From: Ferroglobus placidus DSM 10642
Lineage (GTDB): Archaea; Halobacteriota; Archaeoglobi; Archaeoglobales; Archaeoglobaceae
DNA length: 32,000 bases
Reading direction: 5' to 3'
NCBI RefSeq assembly: GCF_000025505.1
Contig: NC_013849.1
Coordinates: 330,001 to 362,000, forward strand
Positions 15,284 to 30,251 of this stretch are shown in pieces; the stretch's first letter is position 1, and each line of letters starts with the position of its first letter. Made by a program: the position numbers and the translations under genes. The notes under the pieces are model-generated. The model was not told the origin of the DNA. It did not search any database and worked only from the letters and a program-made list of their open reading frames with translations.

Positions 15284-15832
15284 TTACTCGTTACTACTAA
15301 GGTCTACTATCACAAGTTTGCCGTAACCCTCCTCTATTTTTACAGGAAAACGCATTTTCTGGAATATCACTTCAAGTGAGATTTTTATGAACTCCTTTGT
15401 TGATGAATCTATGAGTATAAGCGAATAGGTTTTCTCAGAAATTTTTTTAACTTCAAACCAATTGGTTTTTTCCATTAGCTTCAGAACGTCTTCAACAGAG
15501 TTTAATCCTCTCACGAGGAATTCTACTGCATGACTCGCTGCGACTTTTCGAACTTCTTTCCAAAATCTCTCGTCTTTTATTTTCTCTATTTCTGAAAATA
15601 TAACTTTTAAATAATCAGTATCTAATATTACATGTTCTCTTTTTGATAACATCTCAACCCATGCCGTTAGTGTTTCTTGATCGACATCGCTTTCTCGAAA
15701 AAGAGAATAACCAAGCTCTATTAAATGTCTTATACATTCACTTGTGCTGACATTGGATTTCCTTCTTAATGATTCTAATTTTCTTTTTGAATCTTCATTA
15801 ATTGATATACTTATTCTTTCAGTCGTTCCCAT
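15284..15832 (-). CDS. ribbon-helix-helix (CopG-like) protein with C-terminal unknown domain, paralog of 20628..21218
   Basis: 182 aa with an N-terminal RHH pattern (ERISISINEDSKRKLESLRRKSNVSTSECIRHLIELG). It overlaps the TRAP permease stop by 14 nt, so it is likely co-transcribed. Confidence 0.6.
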   Translation of the reverse strand: MGTTERISISINEDSKRKLESLRRKSNVSTSECIRHLIELGYSLFRESDVDQETLTAWVEMLSKREHVILDTDYLKVIFSEIEKIKDERFWKEVRKVAASHAVEFLVRGLNSVEDVLKLMEKTNWFEVKKISEKTYSLILIDSSTKEFIKISLEVIFQKMRFPVKIEEGYGKLVIVDLSSNE

Positions 15833-20627: not shown

Positions 20628-21218
20628 ATGAGAAAATATTACAAGAGAGTTACAGTAGCCTTAGAAGAGAATGAGTGGGAAGATGTCAAAGAACTAAGTG
20701 ATATGCTTGGAAAGTCCCTTAGCAAGATAATAAGGGAAGCCGTTCAAATTTATAGTCAGATTGTAAGACGATCAATTTTGAATTCGTCTTCTCTTCACGA
20801 GTTTGACAAATTAGATCTAGAAAGATTGTACAACTGGATCCCAGCTATGGCAGATAACCAGCACATAATTATAGACAACGAACATTGGAGGTTGCTTTTT
20901 GAAGCAATAGAGAGAATCGAAGATCAAACAATTTTGAACAAATTTTACGAGAAGGTTAGAAACTCTGGTGTAGCCCATGGCTTCGAATTTTTTTACGAGG
21001 GATACAATACTCCGTTAAAAATTTTGAAAAGATTAGAATTTGGTGGATGGGGATATGTGTTAAAAAAGGATGATGAAACTTATGTTTTTGTTATAAAAAG
21101 TGGAATAGGTTCTAAGTTTGTTGAATATTTCTTGAGAGGTGTCTTTGAGTCACAAAACATTTCAGCAGCAATTACAAGAGGGGAAGGAAAACTTATTATA
21201 AAAATTTTATCTAAATAA
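20628..21218 (+). CDS. ribbon-helix-helix protein with C-terminal unknown domain, paralog of 15284..15832
   Basis: 196 aa with RHH-like KRVTVALEENEWEDVKELSDMLGKSLSKIIREAVQIY. Its C-terminal domain aligns by eye with the other RHH protein: HIIIDNEHWRLLFEAIERI versus HVILDTDYLKVIFSEIEKI, and GKLIIKIL versus GKLVIVDL. Confidence 0.55.
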   Translation: MRKYYKRVTVALEENEWEDVKELSDMLGKSLSKIIREAVQIYSQIVRRSILNSSSLHEFDKLDLERLYNWIPAMADNQHIIIDNEHWRLLFEAIERIEDQTILNKFYEKVRNSGVAHGFEFFYEGYNTPLKILKRLEFGGWGYVLKKDDETYVFVIKSGIGSKFVEYFLRGVFESQNISAAITRGEGKLIIKILSK

Positions 21219-21249
21219 ATTAAAAAATTAACTTTACTCATTAATAATT

Positions 21250-22005
21250 GGTAATGCCTCAGTAATGTTTATATTCAATTAGTTGGATAAATCGGTGATG
21301 ATGTGTCCGCATTGCAAATCGATAAAAACTGTGAAAATGGGCTGTTATTACACGAAATCTGGTGAGAGGAGGCAGAGATACAAATGCAAGAGCTGCGGGA
21401 GAACTTTCGTTTTGAATCCGATAAAGCCGAGGAATTATCCCGAGGAATTTAAGGAGATGGTAGTTAGAGCTGTTGTGAAGGAGGGTGTAGGGATAAGACA
21501 AGCGAGCAGAATTTTCAAGCTTTCTCCTAACACTGTGACAGCTTGGGTAAGAGAATTTTCTAAAAAAGACCTGAGAAATGAGATTAGATCGGAAAAGCCT
21601 GTTATCGAGTTAGATGAAGCTTGGAGTTTTGTTAAGAAAAAGGAAAACGAAATCTGGATTTGGATTGCTTTAGAGAGAAATTCCCGAAAAATAATAAGTT
21701 ATGCAATAGGAGATCGTTCTGTGGATACTTTCAAGAAATTGTGGGACGGAATTGGCGATGAAATAAAGCGGAAAGCAATTTTCTACACGGATCGCTGGGA
21801 CGCTTATAATTTGATTCCTTACAGGCAGAGAATCGTAAGAAGAGGAGGAACGAACCACGTTGAAAGGTTATTCTTAACTCTGAGAAATGATAATCCGAGA
21901 TTCGCAAGAAAATCAATCAGATTCTCAAAATCCTCGGAAATGCTCGAAATTCAATCAAACTGTGGATTCATTACTATAATTTATCAACATTATAGTGACA
22001 CTACC
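21250..22005 (+). mobile_element. IS1-family insertion sequence (~756 bp)
   Basis: Imperfect terminal inverted repeats: GGTAATGCCTCAGTAATG (21250..21267) against the reverse complement of CATTATAGTGACACTACC (21988..22005), 13/18 matches. They enclose an IS1-type transposase. I found no target-site duplication. Confidence 0.6.
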
Positions 22006-22209
22006 GTTGGAGTTTTAACAACTACATTACTTTTCTCCATTTTTTCAAGGACATTTCTTAAATTCTCACGATCAACCTTTGCTGGAATTAGATCTCCAAA
22101 ACCACAAGCGTTTAGAACTTTAGATGTTATCTCTAAAACATCACTCCACGATAAACCTGGATACAATTCACATATACTTTATATATGGCTAGTTCTCTTA
22201 TGTCTGTAA
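21283..22209 (+). CDS. IS1-family transposase (InsA-like Zn-finger/HTH fused to InsB-like DDE domain), with read-through tail
   Basis: CPHCKS...CKSCGRTF zinc finger, HTH IRQASRIFKLSPNTVTAWV, and DDE blocks ELDEAWSF, FYTDRWDAY and TNHVERLFLTLRN. The family-like end (..YQHY) coincides with the right IR at ~22005. The ORF nevertheless stays open for ~68 more codons to 22209. Confidence 0.8.
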   Translation: MDKSVMMCPHCKSIKTVKMGCYYTKSGERRQRYKCKSCGRTFVLNPIKPRNYPEEFKEMVVRAVVKEGVGIRQASRIFKLSPNTVTAWVREFSKKDLRNEIRSEKPVIELDEAWSFVKKKENEIWIWIALERNSRKIISYAIGDRSVDTFKKLWDGIGDEIKRKAIFYTDRWDAYNLIPYRQRIVRRGGTNHVERLFLTLRNDNPRFARKSIRFSKSSEMLEIQSNCGFITIIYQHYSDTTVGVLTTTLLFSIFSRTFLKFSRSTFAGIRSPKPQAFRTLDVISKTSLHDKPGYNSHILYIWLVLLCL

Positions 22210-22231
22210 TCTCAATTATATTTTCCGTCAT
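21990..22231 (-). pseudogene. remnant of an unknown gene, frameshifted and truncated by the IS1 element
   Basis: ATG 22231 gives MTENIIEITDIRELAIYKVY.. and stops after 32 codons. A second frame (22178->21993) reads SICELYPGLSWSDVLEITSKVLNACGFGDLIPAKVDRENLRNVLEKMEKSNVVVKTPTVVSL and is closed by a stop inside the IS1 right IR. A TATA-like TTTAAATTT lies ~30 nt upstream. Confidence 0.25.
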
Positions 22232-22460
22232 TACGGAATTCTATGGGATTTACAAATTTAAATGTTCTTACTCGGAATATGCCAAAAGGGTTAATACTGC
22301 ATCTCAAGCTGTCTGAAGAATTTGCAGAAAAATTGGAGATTAAAATAATAATAAAGAGAAAGAACTTACACTGGATAAGAGAAATGACGGTTAAGGTTAT
22401 GCGGGCGATAATTAAGTTACTCCTAGGGTTACTGATCTAAGTTTAAGGCACAAAGAGATA

Positions 22461-23351
22461 TTAAGGTGACTTTTTATCCTCTTGTTTTCCTCTAATAGCT
22501 TCAAGGATTTCTTTCTCTAACTTCAATATTTCATCTACCATTGTTCTGAGAGAATCTATCTCAGATTTAAGCGTACTAAATTTTGTATCAAGCTCTCCGG
22601 CGATCTTGTTTACTCTCTCAGATAATATTTTAATTTCACTCCATATGGTGGTTACTAAGTCTCTTGTTGCAACGTTGATTATACCTCTAATGAACAGTTC
22701 TGTTATTAACTCAGTTTTATTTATCGGAAAATCATAGATTCTTATGAAGCCTACAGGAAGCGCTACTCCATGCTTATAACACACAATAAAAGCGTGCATG
22801 TATTGGGTATTATCGGCTATGGCTAGTGGAGTATATGTCACTCCCGAAACTCCTGGAGGTAAGTTCCTTTGATGAGGACGCGTGCCTATCCATGTTGGAA
22901 GTCCGAACATTATACCATATACTGTTAACATGACAGGTTTATTTGTATTAATAAAGTTTGAATTTATGCCAAGCACGTTTTGCATAGCATTTGGAGTATT
23001 AATTTTTCCTCCATCTATTTTTCCGACATAATATAATGGAACATCTCCAATCCAGACAATACTATGACCTACATTGAGAAATAATCTTAGCAGACTATTT
23101 GCTGTTGGATTGTTTGGGTTATCTAAGATTAAATCAGGAACAACATCTTGGGCAAACACTACTACATATTCTTTATCTGTAGTCCTAGAGCCTTCACTTA
23201 GTATGTTTTTTAAACTGGTAGTATCAATAGCTTCAAAATCGTACTTTTCAAGTTCTCTAGCTATAATCTTGGCTATATTATGAGGTATCCAGCTATAGGG
23301 ATATCTTTCGTCATAGTATACATACAGCTTTTTAGATGACCCTACCACCAT
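22461..23351 (-). CDS. hypothetical protein, globular N-terminal domain plus C-terminal coiled coil; partner of the OLD-family nuclease
   Basis: 296 aa. ATG 23351 has an AGGTG SD 7-8 nt upstream, inside the OLD gene, and overlaps that gene by 20 nt. The last ~60 aa are heptad-rich ([45 protein letters not shown]). I see no Walker A, DEAD/DExx, HNH or other catalytic motif. Confidence 0.7.
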
Positions 23352-25245
23352 AAGCTACACCTACTTCACGGTCTATACTTAAAATGATCCTCATAATATC
23401 ATCTGGAACTTCTGTGAGTTTTGGTGCAACCTTTTCTGCAATCTTTTGCTTCAAATCTCGTTCAATCAGGCTACCTTTGTGCCATTCAAGTATATCAAGA
23501 AGGTTTTCGTCTACATCTTTTAAAACGTTGAACAGTATTCCGCTAAGTCTATGTAATAGATCTTCTCCATTTTTGCAGGCACCATGCAGTTTCATCTCAT
23601 CTATGACAGATCTAATTTCTTTATCTTGCATGACGACATCATACTTATCCTCAAGATTCCCTCTTAGTGACTCATCAAGTGCTTTAACAAAATCCTCAGA
23701 TTTTATGTAACATAATATATCTTTTCTATTCGTTGTGAATACTTCGTAATTTTCACGTAACTCCATTTCTTTAGCGTCATTTACTGCTTTACGTCCTTGC
23801 TGGTCATTGTCAGCTATTACAAACACTCTCAACCCATAGTCATCTCTAAAGACTTTTATTAGTTCTTTTAGATTTCTTCGACCGAATGGTACTATAGTAT
23901 AACTAAGTTTAGGTAAGTTTTCAAGTAGTTGTTTTTCTATTAGTATGTCAATATAGCGTTGCAACAGTATTCGATCGCTATTCCCTTCAACAAGTATCAC
24001 AGCATCTGAGAAAAGGAAGTAACCGGGCACGACGCCCAATTCTCTGGCAAGTGATTCACTAAGCCTACCACCACGAAATGGATAAAAGACAATCGTGGCT
24101 GGGAGTATCGTTAAGTAACCTTCAAGTTCAGTTTCAATCAACTCCTTTCGAACTCCTATAACGAATCTCTTATCCTTAAGACCAGCGATAAAATCTGGAG
24201 AATGTGTAACTATAATTAGCTGAACATCTAGGCTGTTAGCTAAGATCTCCAAGACCTTAGCTAAACTTCTAACGTATGCTGGATGTAAGTGTACTTCAGG
24301 TTCTTCTATCAAAAACACATGGTGTTTACCTTTAGATATAATCGACGCTAGTATTCCTTCAGTAATTTGATCTCCACTTCCGAAGAGCTCATAACTTAAG
24401 GATGTGCCCTCATACGATTTCGTTAAGGTTTCAGCTCTATCAGGCTGTTCATATTCGTATATGTTACCCCTTATTTGTCTAAGATAATCGTACAGCATTT
24501 TACGAAGGGCAAAAGTTCTTATCACATTTCTAATAGCATTCATAAGTTCGAGAGGCGTAATAGATTGAGTAAAAAGCCCCTTAATCGGGATATCCGCCAT
24601 TTTAGAGACACCAGAAAATGTGTCTATATAGTATACTTTATCTTTTATAATGTCTAAGAATGATTTTAAAACTTCCTCATTCTTCACAGTTCCATTCTCT
24701 ACGATTACACATTGCGTCAAGGGATTAAATCTTTCAGCTTTCAAATCAACATTACGTTTCGTTACTTTACTATGAATTTCTTTCATACCCTCCAAAGCCT
24801 CTTTTGCGATTTTGACAGTCTCTGTTACATGACCATAAACAACTATATTTTGAAGCTTCCACGTAATTTGATTGTCGTTCTTCTCAATAGACACTTCTAT
24901 GTATGCTTTTTCAACACCACTCTCCAAGCCACATATATCCTTCAAGGTGTCTCCTTCTTCTTTATCAAAATTTAATGATACAGCAAGCTTTATTGGTTTA
25001 TTTTGATGAGTGTAAAACCAAAGTCCTCTAATCTGATCTCTTAATCCCTGCTCGGTTATAGTGTTGACATCAAGATTCTTCTCAGTGGAGATGGTATCAA
25101 GATTCTCAAATATTACTCGTATAGCGTTGAGTATTGAAGTCTTTCCAGAACTATTCCTACCTATAAGTACTGTAATTCTTCCAAATTCTACGGACAGATC
25201 ATATATGCTTCTAAAGTTTTTTACTTCAAGTCTTTCTATCTTCAT
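23332..25245 (-). CDS. OLD-family ATP-dependent endonuclease (ABC-type ATPase fused to Toprim domain)
   Basis: 637 aa. Walker [10 protein letters not shown] (aa 29-37), signature-like FGSGDQ (288-294), Walker B/D-loop [13 protein letters not shown] (310-322), H-loop VTHSP (346-350). Toprim Glu in [10 protein letters not shown] (E420) and DxD in VIADNDQQG (D479/D481). Confidence 0.85.
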
Positions 25246-25293
25246 CTGCCATAATCCTCTCCAATTGTATGTTTTTTAAGATTATTTTTCTTT

Positions 25294-26147
25294 GGGGCGT
25301 GTCCAGAAATAACCTCTCGAGATAAGACTGCAAAAATATTACTATCGAATTAAACTCCTTCATGCTCAAAAGATGGAATTCAGCCGTCTACGATGTAGAA
25401 CTCATACTCAAATTCCTTCACGTGATTTTAACATCGCTGAAGATTGATGAAAGATTCAAGAAACGAAAGGGGCGAAAGCCTAAAAGATGTCTAAGCCTGT
25501 ACGTCAAAGCTATCGTTCTGAAAGAGATATTTAAGTGCAGCTTTCGCTATTCGGAATCTTTAACGAAGAAATTCCTTAAAGCAAGAATCCACTTTGAACT
25601 ACTGGGAAATAAAGCATTCGGATCTGATAAAAGAAGTTCTCAAAGCCATAAACGAGTTTTTGAGCCAGATAGAATACTTCTACACCTTTCTCGATTCTAC
25701 GAAGTTTTCAAACTGGCATAAAGACCCTAACAAGCTCTTCGTCTGCGTTAGAGTTGGAGAAGCTTTGATTCCGGTTTACGTTGACTTAACGAGCTCTGAA
25801 GAAGAATTCGTTGGAGAAATTCCTGAGGGGAGAGGATTTGCCTTGGCCGATGGCGCTTTCGACGCTAAAAAAAGTTCTGAACGAGTTATCTGCCGATCGT
25901 TAAGCCGACGAAGAGAAAGCCTGACGGCTTGGGATCGAAGATAAGGGGCCTCTTTTTCGATAGATCGATCTACAGGTATAGAGCTGTTGGAGAAGGTTAC
26001 TTCGGAGCTCTAAGCGTTGAATTAGGCGAGAGATTAAAATCGAGAGGAAAAAGCGATAAAACGAGGATTTTCTAGAAATGTAGTCTATTGTATAAAAATG
26101 GCTTTAAGGTGGAAGCATGGAGCTTCTTGAATTTTTGGACATCCCCC
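25294..26147 (+). mobile_element. degenerate IS4/IS5-superfamily insertion sequence (~854 bp)
   Basis: Terminal inverted repeats GGGGCGTGTCCAGAAATA (25294..25311) against the reverse complement of AATTTTTGGACATCCCCC (26130..26147), 14/18 matches. They enclose a broken DDE transposase gene. No target duplication found. Confidence 0.6.
25362..26075 (+). pseudogene. DDE transposase (IS4/IS5-type), at least three frameshifts
   Basis: The transposase-like sequence is spread over three frames. Frame 0 has ..RKGRKPKR..SFRYSESL. Frame 1 has ..FYTFLDSTKFSNW...GFALADGAFDAKK. Frame 2 has VLNELSADR. Frame 0 resumes with VKPTKRKPDGLGSKIRGLFFDRSIYRYRAVGEGYFGALSVELGERLKSR..*. The D, D and E contexts sit in different frames. 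One shift coincides with the A7 run at 25867..25873. Confidence 0.7.
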
Positions 26148-26163
26148 TCAGGAGTTCGATAAA

Positions 26164-28192: not shown

Positions 28193-29149
28193 GTGATGGG
28201 GGTAAAGAGAATTTCAATTCCTAAAGAAAATAGGGAAAAACTTTTAGTTTTCAACAGGCTCCTCAGAAATCAAACCTTAAACAAATGGAATCCATCCTGT
28301 CCTCATTGCAACAGCTATCATATTATAAAAAAGACAGACATAAAAAGAGAAAGAAAAGGATATGCGAAAAAATATTTATGTAGGGATTGTAATAGTACAT
28401 TTACTTTTGACAATTGCTTTGAATGGACGCATTATCCTCCTAGAGTTGTCGGGGACATATTTCACCTGATAGCAAAAGGTGAATCCTACAGAGACATTAT
28501 TGAGTTCATCAAGGACCGACATGGGGTCGAAATGGACCGAAAAACTGTGATTAACATATCTAGATATTGCACAGAAAGGTTGGAAATGTTTCGGAAGAAA
28601 ATTGATCTAAAACTATTACATCCGACAGTCTGGGAGATAGACGAGATATATTTGCCCAGAGGAAAGGGTAAATTTTTCAAAGCGTTAACGGTCCTCGACA
28701 TTGATACAGGATACATCCTCATAATTTATGTGAGCAATGAAATAGACTACGAATCTGCCAAGAAAACAATAGAGCTGGCGTTGAATAACAGCATACGCCC
28801 ACCGAGAAAGTTTAAATGTGAGAAAAATGCTGCAATAATAAAAGCAGCTAGCACACTCCTACCAAAAAAGACCAAAATAGATGCAAAATCTAAGAAGGAA
28901 AAATTCGACCACTTAAACAATATCGAAGGTCAAAACAGGAAATTAAGAAAGACTTTAAAAAGAGGAGTCGCATATAGAAACAAATCGACGCTCCAAATCA
29001 GAGCCGACATATACAGATACGACCATAACTTTTTCTGGAGGAAACAGGGTCCCCCTCCGGTGTACTATGCTGGCATTAATGTGCCGAAAAATCTGACTAG
29101 GGAAAGGTTCCTTATAGCGGTCGATAAATTTAATAAATTGAATTTATAA
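28193..29149 (+). CDS. divergent IS6-like transposase with N-terminal zinc ribbon (second catalytic Asp position reads Glu)
   Basis: 318 aa, starting at GTG 28193 or ATG 28196. CPHCNSYH...CRDCNSTF zinc ribbon. WEIDEIY...LDIDTGYIL and NNIEGQNRKLRKTLKR align by eye with WHVDDSV...LLDSETRFIL and NNRAERFFKELKRR of the neighbouring IS6-type transposase. The SDGLKSY position reads CEKNAAI. It is AT-rich, unlike its neighbour. Confidence 0.55.
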   Translation: MMGVKRISIPKENREKLLVFNRLLRNQTLNKWNPSCPHCNSYHIIKKTDIKRERKGYAKKYLCRDCNSTFTFDNCFEWTHYPPRVVGDIFHLIAKGESYRDIIEFIKDRHGVEMDRKTVINISRYCTERLEMFRKKIDLKLLHPTVWEIDEIYLPRGKGKFFKALTVLDIDTGYILIIYVSNEIDYESAKKTIELALNNSIRPPRKFKCEKNAAIIKAASTLLPKKTKIDAKSKKEKFDHLNNIEGQNRKLRKTLKRGVAYRNKSTLQIRADIYRYDHNFFWRKQGPPPVYYAGINVPKNLTRERFLIAVDKFNKLNL

Positions 29150-29177: not shown

Positions 29178-30251
29178 TTATCTTTTGGAGGCTCTGAGTA
29201 TAAGTTCCAGCCAGCTGCAATCTTCTGACAAAGCAGCAGACTGCGCCGGAGTTCGATCGTTTAGCGAACTGTGCTTCTTTATGAAATTGTAGTAAATCCT
29301 GTAGCCCTCGACGAACGTTTCTGCTCCTTTCCGAGTTTTAAATCCGTCCATAACCTTCACTCTACGTTTTAGCTCTTTGAAGAATCTCTCAGCTCTGTTA
29401 TTCAGCCCCTCTCTAAGAGAGGACTGGATGTGAATTACACCCGAAAACTTCTGTGATATCGCTTTTTCGTAAGACTTGAGACCGTCGCTGACTATTTCTT
29501 CAGGTTTTTTCGAAACCTCCAAACCTTTTTTTAAAAGCTTTAGAGCCTCTTCGGCTCCTCTTGACTTGCTGATGTGAATAGCCAAGATGAACCTAGTTTC
29601 GCTGTCGAGCAGTGTCCAAATTCGGATGTGATCACCCTTCACCTTAATAACGGAGTCGTCGACATGCCACCTGGCGGAAGAATCTAAATTCACCGACTTG
29701 ACGAACTCGTTGACGAGCTTTACGTACCTCTTTATCCAGTTGTGAACGGTTTTGTGGCAAACTTCGACGTTATAGCTCGCTTTGAGGTGCTGAGCAACCT
29801 GCCTCAGACTCAAACCCCTGAAGTACAGGTCGAGCGCAGCCACTATGGCTTCGGCTCTCTTCTTCATTCCGCCGAACCCCGTTCTCGCGGAGAACTTCTT
29901 TCCACATCTCTTGCAGTAGTACATCTGCACGGGTCCGGATTTGTTGTACCTGATTCCCTTTTTTATGACCTCGTCGTCTCGTCCGCAGTTCTTACAAGTT
30001 CTTTCCTCTTTCAAAGTCGTCGCGGCGTTTTTTACATCCCTAACCGCCAAGTAGTACATCGAAGCGTATATGTGCTTACACTTGACCCCTTTCTTAAAAT
30101 CGGGACATTCGCAAGTCCATCTGTCCCTATTCCACACGACCCTGTACTCTTTATCTCCCTTTTCGGATTTCACAACGAACTCTCCTTCCTTTACCTGAAG
30201 AACTTTACCCTCAGCGAGGAGTTTAAGCCCCTTATCTCTCCTTTTCGACAT
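29178..30251 (-). CDS. IS6-family transposase with N-terminal SWIM zinc finger
   Basis: 357 aa. SWIM motif CECPDFKKGVKCKH, a second CxxC...CxxC ribbon (CKNCG...CKRCG), HTH LSLRQVAQHL, and DDE blocks WHVDDSVIKVKG, IVSDGLKSYEKAI and NNRAERFFKELKRR. Confidence 0.85.
   Translation of the reverse strand: MSKRRDKGLKLLAEGKVLQVKEGEFVVKSEKGDKEYRVVWNRDRWTCECPDFKKGVKCKHIYASMYYLAVRDVKNAATTLKEERTCKNCGRDDEVIKKGIRYNKSGPVQMYYCKRCGKKFSARTGFGGMKKRAEAIVAALDLYFRGLSLRQVAQHLKASYNVEVCHKTVHNWIKRYVKLVNEFVKSVNLDSSARWHVDDSVIKVKGDHIRIWTLLDSETRFILAIHISKSRGAEEALKLLKKGLEVSKKPEEIVSDGLKSYEKAISQKFSGVIHIQSSLREGLNNRAERFFKELKRRVKVMDGFKTRKGAETFVEGYRIYYNFIKKHSSLNDRTPAQSAALSEDCSWLELILRASKR

Follow-up and report, generated by a model that had tools for sequence, protein, structure and literature searches.

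OLD enzymes form the core of the bacterial immune systems P2 Old, Gabija, retron Eco8, and PARIS, in which the partner largely sets how an infection is sensed. OLD classes are defined by genetic context: Class 1 genes stand alone, Class 2 genes occur with the helicase GajB, Class 3 genes occur with a retron reverse transcriptase (RT) and a noncoding RNA, Class 4 genes are split into AriA and AriB, and Class 5 consists of Cran1 of the Sulfolobales with its membrane protein neighbor (PMC10568477; PMC12796447). A 2025 phylogeny of the family contains eleven uncharacterized clades (U1 to U11), three of them archaeal, for which no partners were described (PMC12796447). Here, we analyze a gene pair from Ferroglobus placidus DSM 10642, contained in a stretch of 32,000 nucleotides (contig NC_013849.1, positions 330,001 to 362,000; "the window," whose own numbering is used below). 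The first gene encodes an OLD-family protein of 637 amino acids (positions 23332..25245, minus strand), identified by its open reading frame (ORF), Pfam and PADLOC matches, motifs, and an AlphaFold (AF2) model. The second, directly downstream, encodes a partner of 296 amino acids assigned to the Pfam family PF27344 "MJECL34" (22461..23351, minus strand), identified by its ORF, homologs, an AF2 model, and Foldseek. Both ORFs were found where a preliminary description of this DNA, made from the sequence alone, had placed them. The pair fits none of Classes 1 to 5; that description had claimed as much for the arrangements of the first four. Because the defining context of each of the five classes is absent, we regard the pair as a module of the OLD family whose partner is of a new type, and probably as a form of OLD-based antiviral defense not described before.

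The OLD protein comprises an N-terminal ABC-type ATPase with an insert at residues ∼50 to 270, a Toprim domain at ∼410 to 510, and a C-terminal helical domain at ∼515 to 632. Every OLD hallmark that had been read from its translation is in place: Walker A at residues 29 to 37 (including K35), the signature-like FGSGDQ at 288 to 293, Walker B at 310 to 322 (E314/E315), the H-loop VTHSP at 346 to 350, and, within Toprim, ILVEGNSD at 417 to 424 (E420) and IADNDQQG at 477 to 484 (D479, with D479/D481 forming the DxD motif). In our alignments, K35, E314/E315, E420, and D479/D481 are invariant both within the clade of this protein and in distant OLDs. Pfam assigned AAA_15, AAA_21, and OLD-like_TOPRIM (PF20469, 8.4e-12), and PADLOC likewise ranked Old first (9.5e-35), followed by AriA (8.4e-32, ATPase half) and GajA. 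Foldseek matched the AF2 model (predicted local distance difference test [pLDDT], 85.7; predicted template modeling score [pTM], 0.82) to GajA (1.5e-16), Thermus scotoductus OLD (TsOLD; 7.7e-15), and the retron Eco8 OLD (∼1e-11), at sequence identities of only 13 to 16%. By sequence, the closest PDB entry is TsOLD (6P74), which, like the window protein, has a helical domain after Toprim. Taken together, the motifs, the Pfam and PADLOC matches, and the distant fold matches identify the predicted protein as a genuine member of the OLD enzyme family, whose catalytic set is intact and to which no characterized class is especially near. Its ortholog in Methanocaldococcus jannaschii is MJECL35 (Q60291; 67% identity). 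The exact OLD and partner sequences of the window are absent from a 15-billion-protein collection that does contain the flanking F. placidus proteins, probably because the start codons were annotated differently. Three of these flanking proteins (AtuA-like, radical SAM, and amidase) are exact matches to the F. placidus genome.

The two genes form a co-transcribed, two-gene operon. At their junction (23332..23362, minus strand; GAAGTAGGTGTAGCTTATGGTGG), the partner ATG (23351..23349) precedes the end of the OLD stop codon by 20 nucleotides (nt). An AGGTG Shine-Dalgarno motif is located 6 nt upstream of this ATG, within the OLD coding sequence; both features had been noted previously and are real. 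To place them in context, we considered every full-length partner homolog with retrievable genomic context, the window included. These represent 11 lineages: the window, the M. jannaschii plasmid (L001/L026), a Thermofilum metagenome-assembled genome (L004/L005), L006/L007, L008, L010, L012, L023, L024, L027, and L028, with L006 and L007 being close relatives of the window whose flanks differ. The distance from OLD stop to partner start ranges from −20 to +11 nt in all 11 lineages (e.g., 2 nt in L027 and 0 nt in L028), and a GGTG- or GAGG-type motif precedes the ATG in 8/9 of the junctions read, the exception being L012 with a weak GGGGCG. Such tight junctions are consistent with translational coupling, and the OLD and partner proteins are probably produced in this way.

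The linkage itself is invariant. In 11/11 lineages, an OLD gene lies directly upstream of the full-length partner gene on the same strand, even though the OLD proteins share from ∼30 to 97% identity; conserved linkage of this kind is what the proposal of a two-gene module, made in the preliminary description, had predicted. Conversely, the clade OLDs recovered by the OLD search (L023 and L024) are both followed by an MJECL34 gene (2/2). The clade is sharply bounded, with members scoring 590 to 990 bits against the OLD profile and the next OLD scoring 119 bits; this nearest outgroup OLD has no partner and is followed by a type I HsdR gene. Pairwise distances of the partner and OLD proteins are correlated (Mantel r = 0.94, p = 0.0002, 9 pairs), and the same subclusters appear in both distance matrices. 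In the Thermofilum-related contigs, the OLD gene is split in L005 (486-2337; 284 and 335 amino acids) and intact in L004 (4034-5998; 654 amino acids). Because the otherwise matching L004 has OLD intact, a frameshift or an assembly error probably accounts for the two ORFs in L005, which are thus unlikely to be a PARIS-like arrangement.

DNA identity to the M. jannaschii plasmid (73%) is limited to positions 22499-25245, i.e., to just these two genes. With L006/L007, the matching DNA (94% identity) extends to a point 18 nt upstream of the OLD ATG on one side and to an insertion sequence (IS) boundary, that of an IS1 element at 22005, on the other. The flanks of the pair are unlike in every lineage. 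Hosts include Archaeoglobales, Methanococcales (on a plasmid), and Thermoproteota (Thermofilum), and the distribution is sparse and patchy, the 1.84 billion representatives yielding ∼12 clusters at 50% identity. Because DNA homology is confined to the two genes and the flanks differ, the alignments identify the pair as a two-gene cassette transferred horizontally, as a unit, among hyperthermophilic archaea of these three groups.

Several of the described OLD classes share features with the pair. Class 1, which includes P2 Old, TsOLD, Vibrio cholerae OLD, and Escherichia coli YbjD, likewise carries ATPase and Toprim in a single polypeptide; the PADLOC Old model is the best match, and TsOLD is a top fold match. 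Class 1 genes, however, stand alone in variable neighborhoods (PMC10568477), whereas here an MJECL34-family gene is directly downstream in 11/11 lineages. Gabija (Class 2) is similar in that its operon, too, has two genes, beginning with a full-length OLD and continuing just downstream with a conserved accessory protein, and GajA is the best structural match. In contrast to the helicase GajB, the partner has no P-loop or helicase match and instead combines a fold resembling class I glutamine amidotransferases (GATase1) with a coiled-coil helix; the OLD protein is ∼15% identical to GajA, and GajA models score no better than those of Old or AriA. No helicase gene is conserved near the pair in the gene tables of the related loci. 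Class 2 OLDs also feature a helical insert in Toprim, which makes them longer by ∼50 amino acids; the model of the window protein has helices at 516 to 632, after the Toprim strands.

A retron-like arrangement (Class 3) was rejected, as there is no RT adjacent to the pair in the window or the related loci and no Rfam match across 21900-25600. PARIS (Class 4) shares the logic in which an ABC ATPase is the sensor and Toprim the effector, and the AriA model matches the ATPase half of OLD; ATPase and Toprim are separate in PARIS and fused in one 637-amino-acid ORF here, with the second gene being neither. Class 5 is a parallel in that Cran1 is an archaeal OLD whose gene has a conserved neighbor (SiRe_0087) of no assigned function (PMC12796447). 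Cran1 is nonetheless vertically inherited, essential, and restricted to the Sulfolobales (PMC12796447), whereas the window pair is patchy, plasmid or island borne, and transferred. The Cran1 neighbor is a predicted membrane protein, and the partner is soluble in its model. As for the partner family, PF27344 is a sequence family named by locus tag, for which we found no published function, structure, or link to OLD.

The partner was scanned against local copies of Pfam, PADLOC, and NCBIfam (the PF27344 model was missing from that Pfam copy) without a match, and no Walker A, helicase, or HNH motif was found, as the preliminary description had observed. The PF27344 assignment rests on the annotations of homologs, not on direct scoring: 38/38 partner homologs in a 5.8-billion-protein collection are preassigned to this family. 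Its namesake, MJECL34 (Q60258), is the partner ortholog (64% identity across 98% of the length) and sits with MJECL35 on the 58,407-bp extrachromosomal element of M. jannaschii in the same gene order, with a gap of 5 nt. Using a 37-sequence alignment (A1) as input, AF2 produced a model of the partner (pLDDT, 91.1; pTM, 0.79) with an alpha/beta domain at residues 1 to 231 followed by a single unbroken amphipathic helix of 62 residues at 232 to 293, which bears out the earlier division into a globular domain of ∼230 amino acids and a heptad-rich tail of ∼60. The top Foldseek matches are class I glutamine amidotransferases (probability, 0.97), at ∼12% identity and TM-scores of just 0.45 to 0.53, even when normalized to the target. 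The first ∼110 residues follow the strand and helix order of GATase1 (e.g., GMP synthase subunit A, 2A9V and 7D97), and a viral-library scan with the partner ranked a type 1 GATase second, weakly. When the partner alignment was used for a profile search of the PDB, all matches were coiled-coil look-alikes, such as NadA, haemagglutinin HA2, and spike HR1, and were rejected as compositional. Thus, the partner matches neither a degenerate GajB nor any other known defense partner family in the libraries, and its predicted fold resembles that of GATase1 and not that of a helicase. The description of this protein as unrecognizable holds for the library scans, and fails in that the protein has a Pfam family, a recognizable fold, and an N-terminal domain (N-domain) present in hundreds of proteins.

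The wider distribution of this N-domain was determined by an exhaustive HMMER search with the partner against 1.84 billion cluster representatives, which retrieved 355 proteins at E ≤ 1e-3. Only ∼12 of the 355 cover the whole partner including the helix; the others match residues ∼8 to 160 or ∼8 to 210 alone. A profile scan of genome contigs with the partner retrieved only N-domain relatives and missed the full-length family. No OLD gene was present within the examined flank of N-domain-only loci (0/10); thus, OLD linkage is specific to the helix-bearing subfamily. One divergent, tail-less homolog adjoins HEAT-repeat and JAB genes. Some N-domain proteins are fusions to domains typical of immune effectors. 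In P0056, the N-domain is fused to a DpnII/MboI-type restriction endonuclease (REase), a domain that also matches the Helical-REase associated with prokaryotic Argonaute in PADLOC; in P0095, it is fused to TIR_2; and in P0165, it is fused to a CAP12/Pycsar-type TIR with a match to the TIR portion of PDC-S35, a candidate system in PADLOC. The N-domain also occurs in large, apparently secreted proteins of up to 5,142 amino acids with dockerin, PA14, CarboxypepD_reg, BNR, Laminin_G_3, and carbohydrate-binding (CBM) modules (e.g., P0045, P0054, P0057, P0070, P0098, P0116, and P0128). Because the invariant motifs of the partner are retained in its N-domain relatives, including the effector fusions, we read the N-domain as a conserved module, putatively for binding a ligand or protein (or for catalysis), with repeated recruitment to effector proteins.

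About 20 residues of the partner are invariant in A1: Y12, D14, Y17, F39, F66, D69, P72, D77, G95, W100, G102, D103, P105, G110, W154, P159, G201, F202, R204, and D207. The strongest conservation within the globular domain is found in a block formed by the motif GFIRIYD (G201, F202, R204, and D207) and H186 (22700..22774, minus strand; A1 invariant columns), and its motifs are retained in the consensus of the N-domain-only relatives (A2). In the model, this block and D14, D69, D77, and D103 probably line a pocket that corresponds to the active-site region of GATases, an assignment made by matching the order of secondary-structure elements, not by structural superposition. The likeness to class I GATases in the early strand and helix order does not extend to the catalytic residues. 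No Cys is invariant or nearly so among the 37 sequences, with G102-D103 following strand beta4 instead, and the Cys-His-Glu triad of class I GATases is missing from the alignment. Because there is no invariant Cys, the partner is not a canonical glutaminase.

This pocket is the basis of the main alternative to a sensor role, in which the partner is an enzyme whose conserved site (D14, D69, D77, D103, H186, R204, and D207, plus aromatic residues) catalyzes hydrolysis or transfer alongside the OLD nuclease, such as metabolite or nucleotide destruction or target modification, much as nucleotide hydrolysis by GajB complements GajA. The ∼20 invariant residues, among them five Asp and one Arg, map to the loops after beta1, beta3, and beta4 and to the final strands, the position of the active site in GATase1 enzymes, and these residues are kept in distant N-domain relatives of wholly different context, as expected of a catalytic or ligand-binding core. 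Nevertheless, we consider an enzymatic partner unlikely: the Cys nucleophile and the canonical triad are lacking, no enzyme family matches the sequence in Pfam or NCBIfam, and many GATase1-like domains are noncatalytic. In addition, the N-domain is fused elsewhere to dedicated effectors (TIR and REase), and a second effector in such proteins would be unusual.

Across the family, the C-terminal helix maintains a heptad-type hydrophobic pattern. Its polar motif is strongly conserved as well, as would suit a specific docking surface better than a generic coiled coil. Two OLD-linked homologs, P0031 and P0033 (L010 5001-6464), carry an extra domain of ∼200 amino acids after the helix, with no Pfam match; in L010, the extended homolog is followed by a 303-amino-acid gene of no assigned function.

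Compared with L006, both genes are under purifying selection, with a ratio of nonsynonymous (dN) to synonymous (dS) substitution rates (omega) of 0.19 for OLD and 0.19 for the partner. OLD residues 501 to 637 (23335-23745) show an omega of 0.61 in this comparison versus ∼0.1 to 0.2 elsewhere in OLD, a value based on just 10 substitutions. Within the partner, a divergent mosaic tract spans residues 156 to 205, a loop and a beta-hairpin (22737..22886, minus strand; window versus L006). Its dS is 1.23 and its dN 0.236, with indels, whereas dS is 0.11 to 0.28 elsewhere in the partner gene. The tract is the most indel-rich and variable stretch of A1, and the version in the window is closer to the P0001 and M. 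jannaschii alleles than to the L006 allele. Because its omega is 0.19, which is not raised, and its dS is very high, recombination explains the tract better than positive selection, which we rejected; the pattern indicates that the tract has probably been exchanged by recombination.

On balance, we lean toward reading the pair as a horizontally mobile two-gene OLD module in which the partner acts as a sensor or regulator within an OLD-partner complex and whose role is probably defensive. Under the model that we propose, the two proteins would form a complex to which the partner is anchored by its C-terminal helix. The GATase1-like pseudo-enzyme domain would sense an infection-linked ligand or protein, or would keep OLD inactive, until a trigger frees the ATP-dependent Toprim nuclease onto DNA or tRNA, and the nuclease would then halt the invader or the infected cell. 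Gabija, PARIS, and P2 Old, which join an ABC ATPase sensor to a Toprim effector, operate in this manner (PMC10568477; bioRxiv 10.64898/2026.07.10.737580). Characterized OLDs nick or degrade DNA (PMC10568477; PMC12392090), and P2 Old is reported to cleave tRNA (bioRxiv 10.64898/2026.07.10.737580). A sensor is favored because the N-domain is fused to dedicated effectors elsewhere, because the catalytic nucleophile is absent, because the recombined tract at residues 156 to 205 lies on the globular domain, and because partner-controlled OLD nucleases are known from Gabija and PARIS (PMC10568477). The conserved polar motif of the helix supports the same role, as it suggests a specific docking surface. 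More tentatively, the pair could represent a sixth class of OLD immune systems, native to hyperthermophilic archaea, in which the GATase1-like domain would be an immune sensor not recognized before, would have been joined independently to TIR and REase effectors in other prokaryotes, and would be linked to OLD by the coiled-coil tail as an adaptor.

Several observations weigh against a defensive sensor module. In the window, the pair is surrounded by metabolic genes and IS elements instead of defense genes. The N-domain is found mostly in large secreted proteins (with lectin, CBM, and dockerin modules), which by itself provides no pointer to nucleic acid or immune sensing, and the variable tract at 156 to 205 shows no excess of nonsynonymous change. 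A catalytic site would explain the invariant acidic residues equally well, and in that case the partner would be an enzyme and not a sensor. In the literature, we found no mention of MJECL34 or MJECL35 and no phenotype for any member of the family. Finally, Cran1, the sole characterized archaeal OLD, is not a defense protein (PMC12796447); therefore, an archaeal OLD does not automatically mean immunity.

A more improbable reading than that of an enzymatic partner is an addiction (toxin-antitoxin-like) or maintenance module of plasmids and islands, with OLD as a toxic nuclease and the partner as its stoichiometric inhibitor, which would together stabilize their mobile carrier. The pair occurs beside VapBC and PIN genes on the 58-kb element of M. 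jannaschii, and IS elements and an integrase are found in association with it. The stoichiometry would be set by translational coupling, and AriA of PARIS is named "AriA antitoxin" in the PDB. The gene order, with the putative toxin first and the partner second, is however the reverse of most type II toxin-antitoxin pairs, the size and structural complexity of the partner are high for an antitoxin, and the fusion of the N-domain to TIR and REase points to immune-type sensing. Because toxin-antitoxin-like and abortive infection functions overlap, this alternative differs from a defense module chiefly in the biological role assigned to the pair.

We consider it very unlikely that the pair serves a housekeeping function (chromatin, DNA repair, or the cell cycle) akin to that of Cran1. 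Cran1 does provide a precedent, being an archaeal OLD with a conserved neighbor that is essential and unrelated to defense (PMC12796447), and the window neighbors are not defense genes. The sparse, patchy distribution and the unrelated flanks across hosts are the opposite of the vertical, order-wide conservation of Cran1, the G+C content of the pair is below that of the surrounding chromosome, and the soluble partner is unrelated to the membrane protein next to Cran1. Both addiction and Cran1-like roles are made less likely by the patchy, horizontally transferred distribution. Least probable of all is an ordinary stand-alone Class 1 nuclease followed by an unrelated passenger gene, a reading to which the top-ranked P2-type Old model in PADLOC and the presence of TsOLD among the best structural matches lend themselves but which is to all intents excluded by the invariant linkage in 11 lineages, the tight junctions, the co-divergence, and the outgroup OLD that has no partner.

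That MJECL35 and MJECL34 are adjacent could be read from public databases for decades, and a Pfam accession now exists for the partner; in the literature, we found no prior description of the OLD-MJECL34 association or of any function. Both genes have remained unannotated on the M. jannaschii plasmid since 1996, and the present analysis proposes a testable role for these "hypothetical" genes. Archaeal OLD biology is nearly uncharted, and the pair is a compact, thermostable, and cleanly defined candidate with a new type of partner, offering a tractable entry both to this biology and to the function of a widespread, unannotated N-domain. The evidence that the module is conserved is strong; for its putative defense role, some caution is warranted, as candidate defense gene pairs are discovered often and the mechanism is conjectural.

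The pair was previously said to sit in an AT-rich island with typical defense-island context. The compositional part of this statement stands, with a G+C content of ∼0.35 to 0.37 in the module versus 0.46 to 0.47 at the window ends; the contextual part does not. The AT-rich stretch around the pair contains an MFS transporter, AmiS/UreI, an amidase, TRAP transporter components, AtuA, and two ribbon-helix-helix proteins, in addition to one IS1 and two IS240-type transposases. The neighborhood is an IS-rich variable region with no recognizable defense island. In the related loci, the neighbors are typical of defense or mobile regions: type II and type I restriction-modification genes and a DNA methyltransferase in L004 and L026, GmrSD, Mrr-TPR, and DUF1156/DUF499 in L006/L007, nSTAND NTPases in L010, HEPN and an integrase in L012, and PIN and VapBC in L026. 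Genes with an EVE domain (PUA-like) occur near the pair in 3 of ∼11 lineages (L026 4267-4701, L023 2117-2614, and L010 11359-11464). In two lineages the EVE gene is directly upstream of OLD, and the L023 copy overlaps the start of OLD. EVE may act as a third component that is optional; the window contains no EVE gene.

On the downstream side, the pair is bordered by an IS1-family transposase gene with the right IS end (21283..22004, plus strand), confirmed by PF03400 DDE_Tnp_IS1 (2.3e-17), as had been anticipated. This element sets the lower limit of homology with L006/L007, which stops at 22005. No terminal inverted repeats were detected in 21150-22100, and the transposase ORF (21283-22209, plus strand) runs past the element end (∼22004) into flanking DNA. 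Between IS1 and the partner gene lies the remnant of a downstream gene (22005..22241, minus strand), delimited by DNA alignment and tblastn against L006/L007, where its intact form encodes 251 amino acids with no Pfam match. The preliminary description attributed its destruction to IS1 and placed it at 21990..22231. Truncation by IS1 is indeed evident; the position required correction to ∼22005..22241, and the remnant has additionally lost 12 nt in frame, shortly after the ATG, and gained a frameshifting insertion of 2 nt. The 220-nt spacer between the remnant and the partner gene is very well conserved. It had also been suggested that this gene was once a third component of the module. We rejected this possibility: the 251-amino-acid protein shows no similarity to downstream genes in other lineages and has no counterpart outside L006/L007, and therefore it is not part of the conserved module.

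Upstream of OLD, homology to L006/L007 is lost in the region 25264-26163, which contains overlapping, apparently frameshifted ORFs (119 and 116 amino acids) with an ADGAFD motif and no Pfam or plasmid database match. This region may be a decayed IS. The degenerate IS proposed at 25362-25944 was not confirmed, as only a frameshifted-looking ORF, again with no Pfam or plasmid match, was found there. The native OLD promoter has probably been replaced in the window. A sigma-70 promoter and terminator scan was uninformative, the model not being suited to an archaeon, and Rfam detected no RNA family over 21900-25600.

Two DDE_Tnp_IS240 transposase genes (28193-29149, plus strand, and 29178-30251, minus strand) stand face to face where the AT-rich region has its upper edge; the second additionally encodes a SWIM zinc finger. 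Two proteins of ∼180 to 196 amino acids with an N-terminal ribbon-helix-helix (15284-15832, minus strand, and 20628-21218, plus strand) each adjoin transporter or AtuA-type metabolic genes and may be paralogous regulators.

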